NCBI GenBank assembly: GCA_014361245.1
Contig: JACIWB010000001.1
Location: forward strand, 4,622 to 68,621
Source of the DNA: Thermoplasmatales archaeon
Lineage (GTDB): Archaea; Thermoplasmatota; E2; UBA202; JdFR-43
Direction: 5' to 3'
DNA length: 64,000 nucleotides
Made by a program: the position numbers and the translations under genes. Every line of letters starts with the position of its first letter. The stretch's first letter is position 1. Below are positions 8,054 through 25,290 of this stretch, one piece after another. The notes under the pieces are model-generated. The model saw only the letters and a program-made list of their open reading frames with translations. It had not been told where the DNA came from and searched no databases.

Positions 8054-8869
8054 ATGATTGTTGCAATAGCATCTGGAAAGGGAGGGACTGGTAAAACAAC
8101 CGTCGGAGTAAATTTTGCTGTGGCAAACAATGGAATAATTTATGATTGTGATGTAGAAGAACCAAATGCAAATATTTTTATTAAAGCGGATTTAAGAAGA
8201 ATTGAAGATGTTTTCTTGATGAATCCATATTTTGAATTAAATAAATGCAAATTCTGTAAAAAATGCGCGGATCTTTGTGAATATAATGCAATTGCTGTAT
8301 TGCCATCTGATATTTTATTTTTTAAAGAATTGTGCTCTGGATGTGGCAGATGTAAAATTGTTTGTCCGCATGAAGCTATTAGTGAAGATAAAAGAAAAAT
8401 AGGTGAAATTTATCATGGTAAAAACGGAATAGAGATATATCAAGGATTGCTCAATATAGGAGAGACAAGGGCAAGCCCTTTAATAAGAAAGGTTAAAGAA
8501 CATTTAAGGAAAGAAAATTTATCAGTGTTGGATGCTTCTCCCGGTAATGCATGCCCTACTATAGAAACAATTCAGGGGGCTGACTTTGTTATTCTTGTTA
8601 CTGAGCCAACTCCTTTTGGATTGCATGATTTGAAAATAGCTATTGAAAGGGTAAAAAAATTCAATATCCCTTTTGGTATAGTAATAAATAAATATGGTTT
8701 GGGAGATAAAAGTCTGGAAAAGTTTTGCAACGATGAAGGAATAGAAATTCTAATGAAAATTCCATATAGCATGGAAATAGCAAGAAAATATTCCAGAGGG
8801 ATGATATTAGTTGAAGAAAAAAGCTGGGAAAGGAAATTCAATGAGTTGTATGAAATAATAAAGAGGTGA
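8054..8869 (+). CDS. MinD/ParA-superfamily P-loop ATPase with inserted 2x[4Fe-4S] ferredoxin domain
   Basis: Walker [14 protein letters not shown]; CKFCKKCADLCEYNAI and CSGCGRCKIVCPHEAI (two CxxCxxCxxxCP motifs). Confidence 0.8.
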   Translation: MIVAIASGKGGTGKTTVGVNFAVANNGIIYDCDVEEPNANIFIKADLRRIEDVFLMNPYFELNKCKFCKKCADLCEYNAIAVLPSDILFFKELCSGCGRCKIVCPHEAISEDKRKIGEIYHGKNGIEIYQGLLNIGETRASPLIRKVKEHLRKENLSVLDASPGNACPTIETIQGADFVILVTEPTPFGLHDLKIAIERVKKFNIPFGIVINKYGLGDKSLEKFCNDEGIEILMKIPYSMEIARKYSRGMILVEEKSWERKFNELYEIIKR

Positions 8870-8872
8870 AGC

Positions 8873-9658
8873 ATGGATTTAGATAATAAAATAGAAGAGA
8901 ATATGAAAAATGTGAAACATAAAATATCTATAATTAGTGGTAAGGGAGGGGTTGGAAAAACAACAGTCGCGGTAAATCTTGCTTATGCCCTTGCAATTAA
9001 AGGATACGAAACTGGTTTGTTGGATGCTGATATACATGGTCCAAATGTTGCAAAAATGCTTGGAATAGAAAATGAAAAAGTTTATGGAAGTGAGGATGGG
9101 ATGAAGCCAGTAAAAGTTATCCCTCACCTAAAAGCAATTTCTCTTGCCCTCCTTTTAGAAAAAGATGTGCCTGTTATATGGCGCGGTCCTCTCAAAATGG
9201 TAGCAATAAAACAACTTGTTGGTGAGGTAAAATGGGGTAATCTGGAGTTCCTTATAGTTGACCTCCCTCCAGGAACAGGTGATGAGTCCTTAAGTATAGC
9301 GCAGATTTTAAAGAATTGTAATGCTGTAATAGTTACAACCCCTCAGGATGTAGCACTGCTTGACAGCAGGAGGGCGGCGAACTTTGCCCGCCAGGTTGGG
9401 ATGAATATCATTGGTATTATAGAAAATATGAGCGGTTTTAAATGCCCATACTGCAGAGGGGAAATAAACTTATTTAAAATTGGAGGGGGAGAAGAGGCGG
9501 CTAAGGAATTAAATATAGATTTTTTGGGGAGGTTAAGCATAGATGAAAAAATTGTGATGGAAAGCGATGCTGGAATACCTTTTGTAAGTAAGGAAGGAGA
9601 GAGCAGAGAAATGTTCATGAAGATAGTGGATAAAATATTAGAAAAAATAGGAAAATGA
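8873..9658 (+). CDS. Mrp/NBP35/ApbC-family Fe-S cluster carrier ATPase
   Basis: ISGKGGVGKTTVAVNLA Walker A; conserved CPYC (KCPYCRGE) cluster-ligand motif; 261 aa. Confidence 0.85.
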   Translation: MDLDNKIEENMKNVKHKISIISGKGGVGKTTVAVNLAYALAIKGYETGLLDADIHGPNVAKMLGIENEKVYGSEDGMKPVKVIPHLKAISLALLLEKDVPVIWRGPLKMVAIKQLVGEVKWGNLEFLIVDLPPGTGDESLSIAQILKNCNAVIVTTPQDVALLDSRRAANFARQVGMNIIGIIENMSGFKCPYCRGEINLFKIGGGEEAAKELNIDFLGRLSIDEKIVMESDAGIPFVSKEGESREMFMKIVDKILEKIGK

Positions 9659-10485
9659 AGGAAATTGCAATAGCATCTGGAAAGGGAGGGACTGGTAAAA
9701 CAAGTATTGTATCATCTTTTGCAAAATTTGCTGAAGCTGTAATTGCTGACTGCGATGTTGATGCACCAAACCTTCATCTGATCTTTAATCCAGAAATAGA
9801 AGAAGCAATTCCTTTTGAGGGAATGAAGGTTGCTGAGATAAATGAGAGATGTATAAAATGCGGGAAATGCGAAAGAAACTGCAGGTTTAATGCAATAGAA
9901 AATTTTAAAGTTATAGAGGAAAAATGCGAGGGATGCGGAGTGTGTGTATCTGTATGTCCAGCAAATGCGGTTGAATTGAAAAGAAGAATTATTGGAGAAA
10001 TCTATGTTGCAAAAAGTAGGTTTGGACATCTTATATATGGTTTGCTCTCATCTGGAGAGGGAGGAGGAAAGCTCGTCAGCCAGATTAGACAGAAGGCAAG
10101 AGGATTTTCTCAAAAAAGAAACTTAATTTTGATTGATTCTCCAGCTGGTATAGGATGCCATGTAATAGCATCTATTACCAACGCAGATATGGTCATTATT
10201 GTAGCAGAGCCAAATCTATCATCAATTCATGATATGCACAGAATAATAGAGCTAGCAGAGCATTTTAAATCAAAAGTTTTGGTGATTATAAATAAATGGG
10301 ATATAAATGAAGAGATGACAGAAAGAATTGAAAAATATTGCAAAGAAAAAAATATTAAAATAGTTGGTAAAATTCCTTTTGATAAAAAATTTGTGGAGGC
10401 AGTTATTGCTGGTAAAAGCATAGTTGAATATGACGAAAAAATTGCAAATCTTATGAAAGAGATATGGAAAAAAATTGAAGAAGAA

Positions 10486-10503
<18 letters not shown>
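9655..10503 (+). CDS. MinD/ParA-superfamily ATPase with inserted ferredoxin domain (second paralog)
   Basis: [13 protein letters not shown]; [16 protein letters not shown] and [16 protein letters not shown]. The first ~37 nt of the conserved N-terminal region are identical to the paralog at 8066. Confidence 0.8.
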
Positions 10504-15692: not shown

Positions 15693-16904
15693 ATGAAAAG
15701 GAAATTTTTAGCAATTGGCATAGCAATTTTTATATCTGCAATATTAGCAACTGGAAGTATATTATTTCTTTATCCTTATGAGCCGAAGCAGCCCCCAAGA
15801 GCAGATGATAGCAGTTCAACACCCGAAGGTTTGAAAGAGGTGGCAAATGCAAACAACCAATTTGCATTGAAACTCTATTATGAACTTGCTAAGAATGAAG
15901 GAAACATTTTTTATTCCCCCTATAGCATTCTATCCGCTCTTTTGATAACATATGAAGGAGCAAAAAATGATACAGCTGAAGAAATGAGAGATGTGCTTGC
16001 TCTTCCAGATGAAGAAATAATCAGACCAAATTTTGCTTTACTTTATAATAAAATTAATGAAAATGATTATACTAGAACTGGAAATGCTTTATGGGTGCAA
16101 AAAGATTTTTTATTGTTTGAAGAATATAAAAGGAATGTTGAAAGATATTATGGTGGAAAAGCATCAAATTTAGATTTTTCTGATGAAAAATCAATGGAAA
16201 TAATAAATCGTTTTATAGAAGAACAAACAAATGGCAAAATAAAAGATTTTATTAAAGAAATTGACCCAACTACAAGATTAATTATTACAAATGCAATCTA
16301 TTTTAAGGGAATATGGAAATATGAATTTAATAAATCATTCACATATGAAGAAGATTTCAAAATAAATCAAACAAATATTGTAAAAGTCCAGATGATGTGC
16401 TTGAAGCCAGATAAATTCTTTAAATATGCTGAAACAGATGATTTGCAAATTCTGGAATTGCCTTATAAAGGAGAGAAATTTTCCATGCTAATATTTTTGC
16501 CAAAAAAAGAAAGCCTGGATTTAAACAATCTCGAAGAGTGGAAAAGCATGATGAAAGAAACAATGATAGATGAAATTCACCTTCCAAAATTTGAAATTGA
16601 AACATCATACACATTAAATGAAAATCTAAAATCTTTAGGAATAATATCTGCTTTCCAGCCAGGAAAAGCGGATTTTTCAGGTATAACAAGCGAAAAAATT
16701 TGGATTGGAGCCGTAATTCATAAGGCATACATCAGTGTTGATGAGGAAGGAAGCGAGGCAGCCGCTGCAAGCGCTGTTATCATGCCCACTTCAGCGCCAT
16801 CAAAAATTATTTTTAAAGCCGACCATCCATTTATATTCATAATACAAGAAAGGGATACTGGAAGTATTTTATTTTTGGGCAAGATTGTTAATCCAACTAA
16901 ATAA
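15693..16904 (+). CDS. Serpin (serine protease inhibitor), secreted/membrane-anchored
   Basis: N-terminal signal/anchor; C-terminal hinge and reactive-centre loop EEGSEAAAASAVIM and serpin signature FIFIIQERDTGSILFLGKIVNP; 403 aa. Confidence 0.85.
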   Translation: MKRKFLAIGIAIFISAILATGSILFLYPYEPKQPPRADDSSSTPEGLKEVANANNQFALKLYYELAKNEGNIFYSPYSILSALLITYEGAKNDTAEEMRDVLALPDEEIIRPNFALLYNKINENDYTRTGNALWVQKDFLLFEEYKRNVERYYGGKASNLDFSDEKSMEIINRFIEEQTNGKIKDFIKEIDPTTRLIITNAIYFKGIWKYEFNKSFTYEEDFKINQTNIVKVQMMCLKPDKFFKYAETDDLQILELPYKGEKFSMLIFLPKKESLDLNNLEEWKSMMKETMIDEIHLPKFEIETSYTLNENLKSLGIISAFQPGKADFSGITSEKIWIGAVIHKAYISVDEEGSEAAAASAVIMPTSAPSKIIFKADHPFIFIIQERDTGSILFLGKIVNPTK

Positions 16905-19568: not shown

Positions 19569-21497
19569 TTATTTCTTCTTTTTTCTTATTAAAAAAATAA
19601 GGAATGAAAATAGTAAAATAAGGAAGGAGAAGGATGGTGTTTCATTTCTTCTTTCTATTTCCTTTTCAGTTGAAAATGAAAGAGAAAAATCATCATTTAA
19701 ATTCAATCCTCTTAAATCTTTAGCATTTTTTGATATATTTACAAAATATTTTTTTCCTTTCTCAAAATCAATTTTCAAAATTAATTTATCTTCATTCCAT
19801 TCAAAAACAGTTTCAGCAGGGGGATAAATAAATAAATTTTCCTCTACAGAACTTTTATTCATTTTACTTGAGAATTTTATTTCAATTCTTTCATTTATTG
19901 ATATATTTTCCTCTCCATCAAAAATATTTGTAGATAATATCGATGGATTTGTTATTGAAAAAGAAAAGAAAAAATTATCTTTTAATGGATTTCCATTTTT
20001 ATCTTCCATATAATCTGTTACTGTGACATTATATTTCCCCGCAGAGTAATATTTTGGATAAATTAAAAGCAATGAATCATTTTCTTCCCATTCATAACTA
20101 AAACTGATGAATGGCTTTATTTTTATTGCATTATGAAGAATAGGATACATTGGCTCCGAGAATTTAATTTTTATAAATTCATATAACTCGCTATTAAATG
20201 GCTCGGCATAGCTCACTTCCGGAGGAATGTTATCTGGAGAGGATGTAAAAAATGAAAAATAAAATTCTTCCATTTTTTGCCCGCTGATGCGGGATGCATT
20301 ACTTATTTTTATAGTATAAAGAGTATTATATTCCATATAAGGCTCCAAAATCAATTCTTTTTCATTCTTCCATTCCAGGAAATAGCTTGCATTTGGAGAT
20401 ATTTCTATTTCAATGCTTTTATTCATCTCATGGGAGAATTTTATTATAATAGAAGCATGCACCGGAACATTCTCGGATTTATTTTCGGGATAATGATAAA
20501 CAACTTTTGGGGAAGAGGTATCTACTATAAACTTATATGATATTTCACTTATCTGCCCGATGCTATCTTTTGCTCTTAAAAAAAATTCATATTCTCCATC
20601 ACTTAAGTTATAATCTGCTTTTCTGTTTTTATCCCAGTTGCTCCATTCTTCATTGCTCATCCTGTATGAATAAAGAATTTCACCCTCATCTTCTCCACTC
20701 CATTCAAAGGTTACATTCCCATAGCCCTCAACATCTCTTGGTTTCCTTGTAAAATATATATATGGCGGGGCATCTTCCGCCGGCGGGCTCGCAATGCATG
20801 CATCCACAAAATTTGCCAAAAAGGCATGCGTATCAGATGGAGGGTCTGAATATCTCATTTCCGATTGATTTCTGAAAACGACTGCTATTGCCATTACATT
20901 TTCCTTGTTTGTTGCTTCATTAAAGACTGCATCTATTCTCATTTTTTCATTTTTTTCAATATTTATTTCTCTTTTTATTGCATATCCGAGCAGTGCAAAA
21001 TGAAATGGATTTCCTCTCGCATCCTTCCATCTCGAAGTTGGTTCAACAACATAAACTTTTAAGTAGCCACTATAATTTTTACTTTCTCTATTCTCTATTT
21101 CAACTGATATGTTAAGCCCTTCATTTCTCCATATAACCCTCATTGAAAGATTTATGTTTGCTCTGCTCCTTGCAAGAGAACTTTCAATCGCTTTTATATA
21201 ATCCGATTTACTTTTCTTTCCAAATAAAACTTCATATCCACCATCAAAAAAAGCCGTTGGATAACCATACACATTGTATTCATTAACTCTTTCATTTGCA
21301 TCGCTGCTTTTATCAGCAACAAGAGAAACAAAATAGAATGGATATTGATGCGAGCTATAAATTTCATAAATAATTTCGCTCACATCAGGGCAGGCGGTGC
21401 ATGTTGTAGTTGTTGCTTCCTCACAAAATACATTTGCATTTGCCTTCAAAACGAAAAATAATAGTATGAAAGATAGGATTGCAAGATATTTTTTCAT
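19569..21497 (-). CDS. Large secreted surface protein: thioredoxin-fold CxxC module + Ig-like domains + C-terminal TM/KKKK anchor (PGF-CTERM-like variant)
   Basis: Signal peptide; CTAC...YPFYFVSLVADKSS...YNVYGYPTAFFDGG, paralogous to the Trx-like module of 22580..23995; C-terminus ETPSFSFLILLFSFLIFLIRKKKK. Confidence 0.55.
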   Translation of the reverse strand: MKKYLAILSFILLFFVLKANANVFCEEATTTTCTACPDVSEIIYEIYSSHQYPFYFVSLVADKSSDANERVNEYNVYGYPTAFFDGGYEVLFGKKSKSDYIKAIESSLARSRANINLSMRVIWRNEGLNISVEIENRESKNYSGYLKVYVVEPTSRWKDARGNPFHFALLGYAIKREINIEKNEKMRIDAVFNEATNKENVMAIAVVFRNQSEMRYSDPPSDTHAFLANFVDACIASPPAEDAPPYIYFTRKPRDVEGYGNVTFEWSGEDEGEILYSYRMSNEEWSNWDKNRKADYNLSDGEYEFFLRAKDSIGQISEISYKFIVDTSSPKVVYHYPENKSENVPVHASIIIKFSHEMNKSIEIEISPNASYFLEWKNEKELILEPYMEYNTLYTIKISNASRISGQKMEEFYFSFFTSSPDNIPPEVSYAEPFNSELYEFIKIKFSEPMYPILHNAIKIKPFISFSYEWEENDSLLLIYPKYYSAGKYNVTVTDYMEDKNGNPLKDNFFFSFSITNPSILSTNIFDGEENISINERIEIKFSSKMNKSSVEENLFIYPPAETVFEWNEDKLILKIDFEKGKKYFVNISKNAKDLRGLNLNDDFSLSFSTEKEIERRNETPSFSFLILLFSFLIFLIRKKKK

Positions 21498-21507
21498 GTT
21501 AATGAAT

Positions 21508-21894
21508 TTATTTATGCATTTTAATTTTTGCCATTATTAAAAGAGCCACTGATATTAAAATAATTTCAAACCCTGGTGTTTTTTTGCTGTTCACCTTTAT
21601 TATATCTTCCTTAATAACATTATTATCAACGATTATTGCAATTTCGAAATTCCCTTCATTTGTTGCATTGAATTTCGCAACCCATTTGCCATTTTCATAT
21701 TTCATCTGCTCATAAAAGCAAGCATCTTCATTAGGACAATATTTAAGCTTTACCACACTTGCACTTGTTACATTTTCTATTTCAGCATATACTGTTACAA
21801 CATCCCCAACTTTTGGCTGAGAGGGCTCCCAAGTAACATTTACAGCTCCGGCAAAAGAAGAAAAAAGGATGAGGAAAAGAATCACTGCTTTCAT
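21508..21894 (-). CDS. Small secreted protein with PGF-CTERM archaeal sorting signal
   Basis: Signal peptide; C-terminus KKTPGFEIILISVALLIMAKIKMHK (PGF + TM + basic tail); N-glycosylation sequons. Confidence 0.6.
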   Translation of the reverse strand: MKAVILFLILFSSFAGAVNVTWEPSQPKVGDVVTVYAEIENVTSASVVKLKYCPNEDACFYEQMKYENGKWVAKFNATNEGNFEIAIIVDNNVIKEDIIKVNSKKTPGFEIILISVALLIMAKIKMHK

Positions 21895-22583
21895 ATCTTC
21901 ACCTTGTATATCATTATCTCGTCTCTATATTCATCCCACGCAGAAGTATATCCCTTCACAATTATCTGCGTAAATTTCTCATCTAAAACCTCACTGTTAT
22001 TGTAGTCCTCGTTCCACTTCCACTCAAACGGCGGCTCGCTGTCGCTGTGCATCACTTTCAGCCCGCACCCGCAAGCCATAGGCAGCAGGAAATCAACAAC
22101 TTTTATATCGGATGTTGCATAGACCTCAACATTTATATCTCCAATTACAATCTGCCCCAATATTGGAAATACTTTTATTCCAAAAACATAAATTCCATTT
22201 CTTGGCTTTGTTATCCTGCAGGATGAAAGAGTATGGGGCATACTAACCTGCAATGTTGCTGGCTCACTTTTTGCTCCATGCTCATCTGTTGCTGTAACAG
22301 TAACTACATAAGTTCCCTTTTCCTGCCATGTATGTTTTGCCTCTACCTGCTGGCCAGAATTTACATATGGAGTGCAGAATTCATTTCCATCTCCCCACTT
22401 AAAACAGTAAAATATTTTGTCTCCATCTGGGTCATTTGCAACAGCAGTAAAAGTATATTCCTTTCCCGCTTCACCGCTTGATGGTCCATTTATTGTTGGC
22501 TTCTCTGGTGGATTGTTTGCAATTGCCAGTGCCGAAAAAACAAGCATTCCTACTATAAATATTGTCAGTTTCTTCATATTCAT
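21891..22583 (-). CDS. Secreted PKD-domain protein (short paralog of 22580..23995)
   Basis: First 108 aa nearly identical to the next gene: FTAVANDPDGDKIFYCFKWGDGN...HTWQEKGTYVVTVTATDEHG (PKD signature). C-terminal Ig-like domain related to the C-terminus of the long paralog. The middle Trx module is absent. Confidence 0.6.
   Translation of the reverse strand: MNMKKLTIFIVGMLVFSALAIANNPPEKPTINGPSSGEAGKEYTFTAVANDPDGDKIFYCFKWGDGNEFCTPYVNSGQQVEAKHTWQEKGTYVVTVTATDEHGAKSEPATLQVSMPHTLSSCRITKPRNGIYVFGIKVFPILGQIVIGDINVEVYATSDIKVVDFLLPMACGCGLKVMHSDSEPPFEWKWNEDYNNSEVLDEKFTQIIVKGYTSAWDEYRDEIMIYKVKI
22236..22579. repeat. Copy A of a ~344-bp near-identical direct repeat (5' end of PKD genes)
   Basis: Aligned by eye to 23645..23988 with only 3 mismatches. 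Confidence 0.85.
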
Positions 22584-23995
22584 ATATTTATCACATATAG
22601 ATAGATCTGCTCTTCCGCATAGTTTCCATTCACATCATATGCTCCTATGATAAGAGTATGGCTTCCAAAGGTTCCGTCATATAGGCACTCATATGGTGGC
22701 TCATTGTCATCAAGCAATGTTTCCCCACAAACTGTGAAAACAACATTTTTAACTCCTGAATCATCTGTAACATTTGCCTTCAATGTTATTTTTCCAAAAA
22801 CTATTGCGGTTTCTATGGGCAATGATAATATTTCCCTGTCAAATAGATACAGGCATCCTTTCTTTGGCTTTTCAACAATTATGTTCGGTGGGGTTACATC
22901 ACCCATTTCAAGATTTTCTATTGTAACATTTATTTTTAAAATAGCACCACACTCGCATCCGGTTAGCCAGTCAACTTTAAGATTTAGGTTTAAGTCATGC
23001 ACATCTTGTCCCATGCAATAATTTATTGCATTTTCATATGTTGCTTCATTGCTTGTTCCTCCAACAAGCACCTTTCTTCCACCGTCAAAGAATGCAGTTG
23101 GATAACCGTATAAATTATAATCATTTTTTAATCTATTATAAGCTATACTATTCACATCCCCTATCATGGAAACATAGTAGAAAGGATATACATTCTTATC
23201 AAAAATGCTCTTCAGCGCCCCTCCCATTGCGGGACAATATGGACAATATGTAGCGGTTGCCACTTCTATAAATACTGTATGAGTTGTACCCTCTTTAGAA
23301 TTGCTTCCTTCCTCGCCAGGCCTTGCGGCGGCGCAGGCATCAACATAATATGCATTGAAAGGATTCCTGCTTGGTGGGTATGCGTAACCTTTATGGGGCG
23401 AGGGGTTGAAAAGAGCGGCTATCACCATTATGTTGTCTTCACTCACATCTGGATAATTAGATTGAGAGGGGACCCAATCGACTTCTATATTTGCTTTCTC
23501 CATATAGGGAACATTTACATTTTCGTCATAAGCAAATTCAAGAAAACCAAAGTTGTAAGGATTTTTATTGTAGTCATTCCATCTTGATATTGGCTCTAAA
23601 ATATATATTCTTAATCTTCCACTATATCCAATGCTCTGGCTTAAGGGCATACTAACCTGCAATGTTGCTGGCTCACTTTTTGCTCCATGCTCATCTGTTG
23701 CTGTAACAGTAACTACATAAGTTCCCTTTTCCTGCCATGTATGTTTTGCCTCTACCTGCTGGCCAGAATTTACATATTGAGTGCAGAATTCATTTCCATC
23801 TCCCCAGTCAAAACAGTAAAATATTTTGTCTCCATCTGGGTCATTTGCAACAGCAGTAAAAGTATATTCCTTTCCCGCTTCACCGCTTGATGGTCCATTT
23901 ATTGTTGGCTTCTCTGGTGGATTGTTTGCAATTGCCAGTGCCGAAAAAACAAGCATTCCTACTATAAATATTGTCAGTTTCTTCATGTTTATCAC
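22580..23995 (-). CDS. Secreted PKD-domain + thioredoxin-fold (CPYC) + Ig-like domain surface protein
   Basis: PKD N-terminus; TATYCPYCPAMGGAL...YPFYYVSMIGD...YNLYGYPTAFFDGG (Trx/Grx-like CPYC active site and cis-Pro loop); 471 aa. Confidence 0.6.
   Translation of the reverse strand: MINMKKLTIFIVGMLVFSALAIANNPPEKPTINGPSSGEAGKEYTFTAVANDPDGDKIFYCFDWGDGNEFCTQYVNSGQQVEAKHTWQEKGTYVVTVTATDEHGAKSEPATLQVSMPLSQSIGYSGRLRIYILEPISRWNDYNKNPYNFGFLEFAYDENVNVPYMEKANIEVDWVPSQSNYPDVSEDNIMVIAALFNPSPHKGYAYPPSRNPFNAYYVDACAAARPGEEGSNSKEGTTHTVFIEVATATYCPYCPAMGGALKSIFDKNVYPFYYVSMIGDVNSIAYNRLKNDYNLYGYPTAFFDGGRKVLVGGTSNEATYENAINYCMGQDVHDLNLNLKVDWLTGCECGAILKINVTIENLEMGDVTPPNIIVEKPKKGCLYLFDREILSLPIETAIVFGKITLKANVTDDSGVKNVVFTVCGETLLDDNEPPYECLYDGTFGSHTLIIGAYDVNGNYAEEQIYLYVINI
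23645..23988. repeat. Copy B of the ~344-bp near-identical direct repeat
   Basis: See copy A; mismatches at 3 positions (CFKWG/TPYV vs CFDWG/TQYV in the protein). Confidence 0.85.
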
Positions 23996-24066
23996 CAGTG
24001 GTAAATAATTATTTATATTAAAATTTTGCTCATCATGTAATCATCTGTTTTCAAATAAATAGATAT

Positions 24067-25290
24067 ATGGAAGGACAGGCAAAAAAAGCATCTTTTGGGA
24101 GGGGATGGGATGCCTTTGCAACCAGCCTATCCTTCCAAAATTATAGAAAAAAACAATATATATTAATTTCGTTTTTTTATATTCCATGGCAATTGGTAGC
24201 ATTTGTCATTAATGCAAACTTTTTTAATCGATTTTATATAGCACATATGGAAAATGAGGAAATAAAGCTTCCGGAATTTGATGAAAAAAAATTCAAGGAA
24301 AAGGAAAAGAAAAAAGCAAAGATATATTTTATATCTTTTATTTTTGGATTAATAATGGCAATTCTATGTTCTTTCTTCTGGGTAAATTTGCCATCAAACA
24401 TTAGATGGCTTCTCTGCTTCCTGCTCGCAATTTCTTCAATTGGCTTTCTTGCAAAATTTTTCCAAATATTTAAACTGGATATCAAAAATTTCAGCAAAAA
24501 AGATTGGATTGCTTCAATATTTTATTATTTTATAACATGGTTAGCATTTTTTATACTTTTTATAAATCCACCATTCCATGATGTTTCCCCTCCAAAGATA
24601 GAGGTTGTTGCACTCCCAGAAATTCAGCAGGAAAATGGAACAATAAATCTTTTTGCTCTTATAACAGATAATTCATATGTTAGCAATGTTGTAATAAATA
24701 TATCTGGAAATGAATATGAAATTAAAAAAGATAATAACTCTGTTTATTCCTATAATCTAACCTATCCCGTAAGCGATTATTTCATTGTTGCAAAGGATAA
24801 AAACAATAATGAAGCAAAATATGAAGGAAAAGTCACATATAAAAACAATTTAATAAAGATAGAAAGCGATGAAGTTTTAAATTCCTCATCAGAGATTGAA
24901 ATAAAGGTTTATAAAAACATAAGCAAAAAAGGTTTTAGAGTATTTTATAGAATTGGAGAATATGAGGTAAATGCAACAAAATCAGGAGAGACAGGGGATT
25001 ATTTAATCTATTCAACATCCCCACAATACATTGGATGGAAAAAAAATTCATTAAATGAAATCGAAATATTTGTTGAGGTAATTCACTATTTCCCTGGTAT
25101 AAAAGATGCATATTCAAATAAAATATATGGAGGAAAATATTATTTCCAAACCACCGATGATGCCAATATAGGAGTGCTTGAATCGCCCGTCCCGAAAGAT
25201 TTGCCCCAACCCGAGCCGCTCCGCACGCCTGGCTTCGAACTCGTTTTGCTGATACTTGCAATAGCTTTATTTTTGAGAAAGAAGAAATGA
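24067..25290 (+). CDS. Membrane/surface protein with PGF-CTERM sorting signal (true start may be internal, M at 24247)
   Basis: C-terminus LRTPGFELVLLILAIALFLRKKK; 3-4 N-terminal TM helices then a beta-rich extracellular region with many NxS/T sequons. The 5' 180 nt contain the shared mini-ORF motif (24108..24156). Confidence 0.5.
   Translation: MEGQAKKASFGRGWDAFATSLSFQNYRKKQYILISFFYIPWQLVAFVINANFFNRFYIAHMENEEIKLPEFDEKKFKEKEKKKAKIYFISFIFGLIMAILCSFFWVNLPSNIRWLLCFLLAISSIGFLAKFFQIFKLDIKNFSKKDWIASIFYYFITWLAFFILFINPPFHDVSPPKIEVVALPEIQQENGTINLFALITDNSYVSNVVINISGNEYEIKKDNNSVYSYNLTYPVSDYFIVAKDKNNNEAKYEGKVTYKNNLIKIESDEVLNSSSEIEIKVYKNISKKGFRVFYRIGEYEVNATKSGETGDYLIYSTSPQYIGWKKNSLNEIEIFVEVIHYFPGIKDAYSNKIYGGKYYFQTTDDANIGVLESPVPKDLPQPEPLRTPGFELVLLILAIALFLRKKK
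24108..24156 (+). other. Second copy of the GGAGGGGATGGG...TTGCAACCAGCCTAT motif with mini-ORF MGCLCNQPILPKL* (24115..24156)
   Basis: Seen directly; differs from the ftsZ-upstream copy by a 6-nt insertion (atgcct). Confidence 0.4.

Follow-up and report, generated by a model that had tools for sequence, protein, structure and literature searches.

The closest analogue of the locus described here is mtrA-1/mtrA-2 of the Methanococcales and Methanomicrobiales, tandem paralogs of the mtr operon in which the MtrA domain is homogenised and the other domain differs (Wang et al. 2015, PMC4632066). In a systematic survey, long-lasting recurrent concerted evolution was reported for 19 genes of bacteria and 7 of archaea; of the 7 archaeal genes none comes from Thermoplasmatota and none encodes a surface or PKD protein (Wang & Chen 2018, PMC6053082). 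Gene conversion is also known to equalise genome copies in polyploid Haloferax volcanii (PMC11276520). Here we analyse a stretch of 64,000 nucleotides from a Thermoplasmatales archaeon (assembly GCA_014361245.1, contig JACIWB010000001.1, positions 4,622 to 68,621 of the forward strand), hereafter the window, in which two tandem genes for secreted PKD proteins begin with a near-identical 5′ module encoding a signal peptide and a PKD domain. We conclude, with a probability of roughly 85%, that the two genes are old tandem paralogs whose 5′ module is homogenised by recurrent gene conversion, and that this process is long-lasting and domain-limited.

A near-identical module at the start of two tandem genes

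Four co-directional open reading frames (ORFs) lie on the minus strand of the window, referred to below as the long, short, 128-aa and 642-aa genes. The long gene (22580..23986, -) encodes 468 aa from the ATG at 23986. The first-pass annotation had placed its start at the alternative GTG at 23995, which would give 471 aa, but homology and the NCBI model P0001 (468 aa, 100% identical, named ‘PKD domain-containing protein, Thermoplasmatales archaeon’ in a metagenome-assembled genome, MAG) set it at the ATG. The short gene (21891..22583, -) encodes 230 aa from the ATG at 22583 or 228 aa from the ATG at 22577; the first of these ATGs shares bases with the long gene’s stop codon (ATGA). The long protein is ordered as a signal peptide, a PKD domain, a beta-sandwich with an inserted, predicted thioredoxin-like fold, and a Big_7 Ig domain, and the short protein as a signal peptide, a PKD domain and a Big_7-like C-terminal domain, without the thioredoxin-like module.

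Repeat search, MAFFT alignment and base-by-base comparison together define a direct repeat of 342 nt that is identical at 339 of 342 positions. Copy A (23645..23986, -) forms the 5′ 342 nt of the long gene, comprising the start codon, the Sec-type signal peptide and the PKD domain up to ...QVSMP, and copy B (22236..22577, -) forms the 5′ 342 nt of the short gene. The initial repeat search returned 22236-22535 against 23645-23944 at 99% identity, which alignment and the base walk lengthened to the full 342 nt; the near-identical repeat and its three substitutions had been recognised in the first-pass annotation, with a length of 344 nt that we correct here. The copies are 1409 nt apart, start to start, in two genes on the same (minus) strand, and between them lies a 1067-nt segment unique to the long gene (22578..23644, -) that would be lost on repeat-to-repeat deletion or assembly collapse. 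Identity starts exactly at the ATG of MKKLTIF and stops after ...QVSMP (residue 114), with unrelated sequence directly beyond both ends, and the 3′ limit directly precedes a low-confidence interdomain linker at residues 115-117 of the structural model. Past residue 114 the only similarity between the two proteins is that of short residues 124-230 to long residues 374-471 (24% identity, E 1e-5), in agreement with the earlier description of their remainders as only distantly related. Self-BLAST of the window shows no other repeat except one of 39 nt, which excludes chance as the cause of the repeat, and it shows no third PKD copy that might have donated the three differences.

Module identity in related operons

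All of the sequences compared here are short-read metagenome assemblies. Relatives were obtained by tracing homologues of the long protein at 50-65% protein identity back to their contigs; W denotes the window’s own locus, numbers from L001 to L086 the related contigs or loci, and P numbers homologous proteins. [quoted passage not shown] Orthologous four-gene operons were found in at least seven other Thermoplasmatota lineages, with a gene GC content of ~36-66%. The operon comprises the long gene, the short gene, a ~135-aa gene and a ~650-aa gene, and in L001 and L002/L003 has the same GNAT and Fer4 genes beside it; its gene order recurs in L005, L085 and L086, and the L004 contig stops inside the second repeat copy. 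In L001, L002, L005, L085 and L086 the short-gene orthologues encode 234-237 aa, and the syntenic counterparts of the 128-aa gene 134-140 aa.

Within genomes the module is 95-100% identical overall between adjacent paralogs. It is identical at 339/342 positions in W, 363/363 in L001, 382/382 in L002 and equally in L003 (including 9 nt with the ribosome-binding site), 371/371 in L085, 374/374 across four copies in L086 and 359/359 in L025, and reaches 99.5% over 374 nt in L005 and 95.4% over 395 nt in L006, values from which only “at least ~95% identical” can safely be read because De Bruijn-graph assemblers can merge near-identical repeat copies. In L006, L024 and L025 (gene GC 45-66%) a different paralog, of ~371 aa, stands beside the long gene; it consists of a PKD domain and a non-permuted thioredoxin-like unit, and its module is still 95-100% identical to that of the long gene. 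The number of module genes ranges from 1 to 4 among lineages and the 5′ boundary of identity varies, including the ribosome-binding site in L002, starting at the ATG in W and lying inside the signal peptide in L025. Homogenisation was seen in every related lineage examined that has at least two copies (counted in W/L084, L001/L005, L002-L004, L085, L086, L006, L025 and, with the caveat of its N-gap, L024). The earlier proposal of gene conversion or recombination between diverged tandem paralogs is thus upheld, although not as the single recent event then envisaged, since it is recurrent in every multi-copy lineage examined.

Two related sequences depart from the common arrangement. Positions 1-4166 of L086 (ENA ERZ650341 NODE_6604) hold four tandem genes (in order: third-type, long, third-type and short) that all start with an identical 374-nt module, together with an exact 1561-nt duplication that is probably an ambiguous path through four identical nodes, the alternative being a very recent unequal crossover. 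P0014 (585 aa, JGI) is a fused ORF in which a long-type protein lacking Big_7 runs on into a second PKD domain and then a C-terminal domain of the short type; its two PKD copies, judged by eye, are similar and clearly not identical, and conversion seems to have lapsed there or to have been only partial.

Concerted evolution of the module

The 282-nt segment encoding the mature PKD domain shows 99-100% identity within genomes and 49-86% between lineages, close strains excepted, and the between-lineage nucleotide identity of the unique parts is comparable (52-70% for the long gene and 59-72% for the short gene). In a neighbour-joining tree built from the module, paralogs of one genome pair together, and the signal peptides differ freely between genomes and are identical within each. 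The tree of the C-terminal domains has the opposite pattern, with separate long and short clades, identities of 26-35% between the long and short proteins of the same genome and 44-99% among short orthologues. As this tree splits by paralog type, the duplication predates the splits between lineages. For the module, synonymous divergence (dS) within genomes is 0-0.016 and between lineages runs from 0.56 to saturated; nonsynonymous divergence (dN) between lineages is 0.14-0.25, which shows conservation of the PKD module in protein sequence. In the unique parts of both genes dN/dS is 0.07-0.17, which indicates that both are functional and under purifying selection. The module has no excess of GC at third codon positions, tested as a sign of GC-biased conversion, a result that is neutral rather than contrary.

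Recurrence is also visible between close relatives. L001 and L005, strains that are ~99% identical, show 8 differences in the module, of which 4 are synonymous, and in each strain all 8 are present in both paralogs. A metagenome scan with a 24-nt repeat probe returned one contig, too few for population-level junction counts; this is L084, a JGI metagenome contig that is 95.3% identical to W and has the same arrangement. At 11 sites both W copies agree against the short copy of L084, and at offset 315 from the ATG, the only site readable in both L084 copies, both have G and both W copies have C. The module of these paralogs therefore evolves in concert within genomes, does so only within the limits of its own domains, and does so repeatedly.

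Origin of the three mismatches in the window

The repeat copies differ at exactly three positions, at offsets 177, 179 and 208 from the ATG (23809, 23807 and 23778 in the long copy; 22400, 22398 and 22369 in the short copy). All three differences are nonsynonymous and fall in two codons (D60K and Q70P) within 32 nt: codon 60 is GAC (Asp) at 23807..23809 (-) in the long copy and AAG (Lys) at 22398-22400 in the short copy, and codon 70 is CAA (Gln) at 23777..23779 (-) in the long copy and CCA (Pro) at 22368-22370 in its short counterpart. A ratio of 0 synonymous to 3 nonsynonymous changes hints at selection and is not statistically significant.

By comparison with L084, the changes at offsets 179 and 208 are found only in the short copy of W, and look like new mutations that arose after the last conversion. 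At offset 177 an A is common to the short copies of W and L084 and a G is present in the long copy of W, as in most orthologues; this difference may be older and paralog-specific, at a residue that is naturally variable. We also considered the 32-nt patch that holds the three differences as an unconverted island, and set this aside as the L084 comparison points to new changes at offsets 179 and 208. Residue 60 lies just before a WGDG motif and is D in the W long protein, K in the W short protein and N in the L084 short protein; in other lineages it is D or N.

A model for homogenisation and its possible benefit

In the model that we favour, non-reciprocal homologous recombination (gene conversion in the broad sense) between copies 1.4 kb apart would keep the module near-identical, and conversion tracts would end where homology ends. 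Upstream, the limit would be set by the promoter before one copy and the end of the long gene before the other; downstream, by the beta-sandwich/thioredoxin-like unit after one copy and the Ig-like domain after the other. Non-crossover outcomes would homogenise the copies, and crossover outcomes would delete or duplicate the segment unique to the long gene. Since high identity favours the next exchange, the homogenised state should perpetuate itself. We infer that the molecular pathway is homologous recombination of the RadA type, a mechanism made plausible here by the efficiency of gene conversion in the euryarchaeon H. volcanii; identical modules may also bring a selective benefit.

What that benefit might be can be proposed only tentatively. 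One possibility, to which we give clearly less than even odds, is that identity itself is selected because the signal peptide and PKD domain act as a common export or docking module that 2-4 co-transcribed secreted proteins would need to have in exactly the same form. Such a module would engage a common anchored partner, for example a PGF-CTERM-like protein or the 642-aa membrane-anchored protein of the operon, and gene conversion would serve as a synchroniser through which the module evolves as one unit. If this were true, a shared module would have persisted across a deep Thermoplasmatota clade (gene GC ~36-66%, dS saturated), and the locus would join the very few known archaeal cases of concerted evolution that are both domain-limited and long-lasting, and would be the first to involve cell-surface proteins.

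Assembly reliability and alternative explanations

Several observations weigh against recurrent conversion as the explanation. The “100%” module values and the 8/8 result for L001/L005 may be inflated by merging of repeats; L024 has an N-run inside the repeat and L086 carries an implausible exact duplication of 1561 nt; and at least one paralog-specific site, offset 177, may be resisting homogenisation. Some of the same observations, together with the contigs of L004, L006 and L084, which stop 112-131 nt inside a repeat copy, and the four-copy path of L086, could instead mean that the repeat is a collapsed or mis-joined node and that the short gene, or its 5′ end, is chimeric. The three loci without a long gene (L018, L020 and L021, sisters of two-copy lineages with only the short gene behind the putative operon promoter) point the same way, and L021 matches its 90%-identical relative L005 minus exactly one repeat and the long-unique segment; L021, like the other short-only loci, may reflect repeat-to-repeat deletion and equally an assembler skipping the loop. 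The assembly hazard raised in the first-pass annotation is therefore real. The suggestion that the short gene might be a chimeric mis-assembly is not borne out: independent assemblies of different samples, their contig names given by different assemblers, yielded the pair of long and short genes in W, L084, L001, L005, L002, L003, L004, L085 and L086, five lineages in all, and both ORFs are intact, in frame and, with dN/dS of 0.07-0.17 in their unique parts, under purifying selection. Moreover, copy-specific differences are kept in W (3) and L006 (9), showing that the copies were resolved separately in assembly, and copies that differ by more than ~5% would not be merged by an assembler; copies 60-75% identical cannot become identical in this way. 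Independent, recent, one-off partial duplications or domain swaps in each lineage would dispense with continuing conversion, and would suit the tandem arrangement of the genes, the copy number of 1-4 among lineages and the slightly variable 5′ boundary. However, with orthologous unique parts and a 3′ boundary at one and the same linker throughout the lineages, the recipients must already have had a homologous module; a single replacement of a homologous segment by that of a paralog is gene conversion anyway; and such swaps would have been needed recently in at least seven lineages and again after the L001/L005 and W/L084 splits, which amounts to recurrence. We regard these one-off events as very unlikely, and an assembly artefact as less likely still.

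Programmed phase or antigenic-like variation through the repeats, raised in the first-pass annotation, would fit proteins that are secreted or surface-associated, and the direct repeats could at some frequency lead to loss of the long gene, as the short-only loci of three lineages might suggest. Such variation is nevertheless hard to reconcile with the locus, where we found neither silent nor promoterless cassettes and, within the window, no third copy, both copies heading complete ORFs; no inverted (invertible) repeats around the promoter, the repeat search yielding only weak inverted repeats at chance level; and no recombinase nearby, the neighbours being housekeeping genes. The exchanged segment is moreover the conserved part, identical within genomes and conserved in protein sequence between lineages rather than hypervariable, and a repeat-to-repeat deletion is irreversible and hence no switch, which leaves this explanation a fainter prospect than either of the two before it. 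The remaining alternative, that strong purifying selection alone keeps the modules identical, can appeal to the good conservation of the PKD module at the protein level. It is refuted by the contrast in dS, with copies identical within genomes and saturated between them, for which purifying selection alone is insufficient, and by signal peptides that vary between genomes and are identical within each; its probability is negligible. Recurrent gene conversion between old tandem paralogs thus remains our preferred explanation.

On a practical level, users of MAGs should be aware that the repeat breaks contigs, and that it can silently drop the gene carrying the thioredoxin-like module or scramble gene order and copy number. 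As a consequence of these assembly faults, calls of operon presence or absence in short-read bins are unreliable.

Operon products

Both proteins of the window match the PKD families PF00801 (47.1 and 47.2 bits, cut-off 23.5) and PF18911 (45.8 and 46.5 bits, cut-off 27). An AlphaFold model built for the long protein with 62 homologues reaches a mean predicted local distance difference test (pLDDT) score of 92; residues 28-113 adopt the PKD beta-sandwich fold, with PDB 4xed as the best structural match, and linker residues 115-117, which are disordered, are the only stretch with pLDDT <50. In the model a thioredoxin-type fold is formed by strand 238-244, helix 251-264, strand 269-275, helix 280-289, strands 297-300 and 305-308, and helix 314-325, with a CPYC motif (248-251) at the N-terminus of the first helix, and C248 and C251 are invariant in 62/62 homologues. 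The middle of the long protein is thus predicted to be thioredoxin-like, a reading that sequence comparison otherwise backs weakly: Pfam thioredoxin hidden Markov models (HMMs) gave no match on the W long protein, and a faint PF13098 match on relatives only; phmmer against PDB thioredoxin domains gave weak hits (E 0.015-0.02); and many homologues carry the JGI name ‘thiol-disulfide isomerase/thioredoxin’.

The third gene of the operon (21508..21894, -) encodes 128 aa with a signal peptide, a small beta domain and a C-terminal ...TPGFEIILISVALLIMAKIKMHK, and had no match in the HMM search. From its sequence, the TPGFEIILISVALLIMAKIKMHK terminus looks like PGF-CTERM. The fourth gene (19569..21497, -) encodes 642 aa with a signal peptide, a thioredoxin-like domain (CTAC) and beta-sandwich in non-permuted order, Y_Y_Y, Big_5 and a C-terminal membrane anchor. 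The thioredoxin-like and beta-sandwich unit is circularly permuted between the long and 642-aa proteins: residues 37-138 of the latter correspond to long residues 252-360 (E 1e-19) and its residues 124-243 to long residues 103-227 (E 2e-18), with the order swapped. A match to Omp28 (PF11551) on the 642-aa protein, at 22.3 bits, is under the 34.9 cut-off, and the long protein has none. By eye, the 128-aa protein and the 407-aa product of a gene at 24067-25290 (+) carry a C-terminal TPGFE(L/I)... with a hydrophobic helix and then a basic tail behind it, and the 642-aa protein ends in a TPSF variant; an NCBIfam scan for PGF-CTERM-like ends of the 128-aa, 407-aa and 642-aa proteins gave no match, and the C-termini of the long (...YLYVINI) and short (...MIYKVKI) proteins have neither the PGF-CTERM motif nor the helix. 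A membrane segment weakly resembling EMC6-arch is also present in the 407-aa protein.

The join between the long and short genes varies among relatives. A Shine-Dalgarno spacer (GAAGGAGGTGAAAAA) precedes the short gene in L002/L004, and a near-identical form does so in L001/L005; in W (22575-22600, -) and L084 (1140-1195) this spacer is missing and the short gene abuts the long gene through ATGA. The missing spacer and the ATGA overlap in W and L084 suggest translational coupling of the two genes.

Promoter and neighbourhood

A TATA-box-like sequence, TTTTAATATA (24014..24023, -), lies 37 nt upstream of the long-gene ATG. It belongs to a strongly conserved motif, AACGATAGTTAA[AG][TC]TTTAATA, which W, L001, L002, L004, L005, L006, L018, L020, L021, L024 and L025 all carry ~35-45 nt ahead of the operon’s first start codon, and which is kept whichever gene leads (long, third-type or short) despite the wide spread in GC. 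It is likely a putative archaeal promoter comprising a B recognition element (BRE) and TATA box. A scan for sigma-70 promoters and terminators stayed at the level of shuffled sequence, using a bacterial model that does not apply to an archaeon, and no Rfam family was found on either strand of 19.0-25.5 kb.

The neighbours of the operon in the window are housekeeping genes (NadA, serpin, aspartate dehydrogenase, Fer4 protein, GNAT and PheRS-beta), and no recombinase or mobile element was found among them. The serpin gene is full-length (15693-16904, +; PF00079, E 2e-111), archaeal, and lies three genes past the GNAT gene that flanks the operon. In L002 (4776-5905) and L003 (4498-5627), divergent genes for a DsbD_TM/CcdA membrane protein and an AhpC-TSA/redoxin-type thioredoxin-like protein stand just upstream of the operon, where W has a different neighbour; this gene content fits an extracytoplasmic thiol-redox role for the predicted CxxC modules.

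The 39-nt repeat is an exact direct repeat (8061-8099 and 9665-9703, +) over the P-loop at the 5′ ends of two genes (ORFs 8054-8869 and 9655-10503) for MinD/CooC-like Fe-S ATPase paralogs that are otherwise diverged. Possibly this marks a second patch of conversion, very short, within the same genome.

Comparison with known systems

The locus is a new example of a known process, concerted evolution by gene conversion, and no new kind of system. It adds a domain-limited, long-lasting archaeal case that involves surface proteins and comes from an uncultured, globally abundant sediment group. It also defines a conserved operon of extracytoplasmic, predicted thioredoxin-like and Ig-like proteins whose members may act together, and which offers a lead for surface biology.

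In the cassette-based antigenic variation of Neisseria pilE/pilS and Borrelia vlsE, variable segments are moved from silent donors into one expression site, creating diversity. The likeness to the present locus lies in non-reciprocal recombination between partial homologues of surface-protein genes; here, however, two expressed genes are made alike, and there are no silent donors and no hypervariable segment. The conversion of H. volcanii acts between chromosome copies, whereas here it would act between paralogs in cis. PDB 4xed, from an M14-like peptidase of Thermoplasmatales archaeon SCGC AB-540-F20, carries its PKD domain on a peptidase, and in the present proteins the domain is N-terminal on thioredoxin-like/Ig-like proteins.

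The pattern described by Wang and Chen is matched here in that paralogs are closer within species than orthologs are between species, with synteny in support of orthology and in at least five lineages. The cases in that survey mostly extend over almost the whole gene, whereas here only the first 114 codons are involved. The likeness to mtrA-1/mtrA-2 is closer, as both concern tandem paralogs within one archaeal operon, in which one domain is subject to long-lasting recurrent conversion and the rest is structurally different, across many species. The two differ in that mtrA encodes a subunit of an energy-conserving methyltransferase complex of methanogens, in contrast to the secreted PKD proteins of Thermoplasmatota, and in that the homogenised part here takes in the signal peptide (in one lineage also the ribosome-binding site) and extends to as many as 3-4 paralogs.

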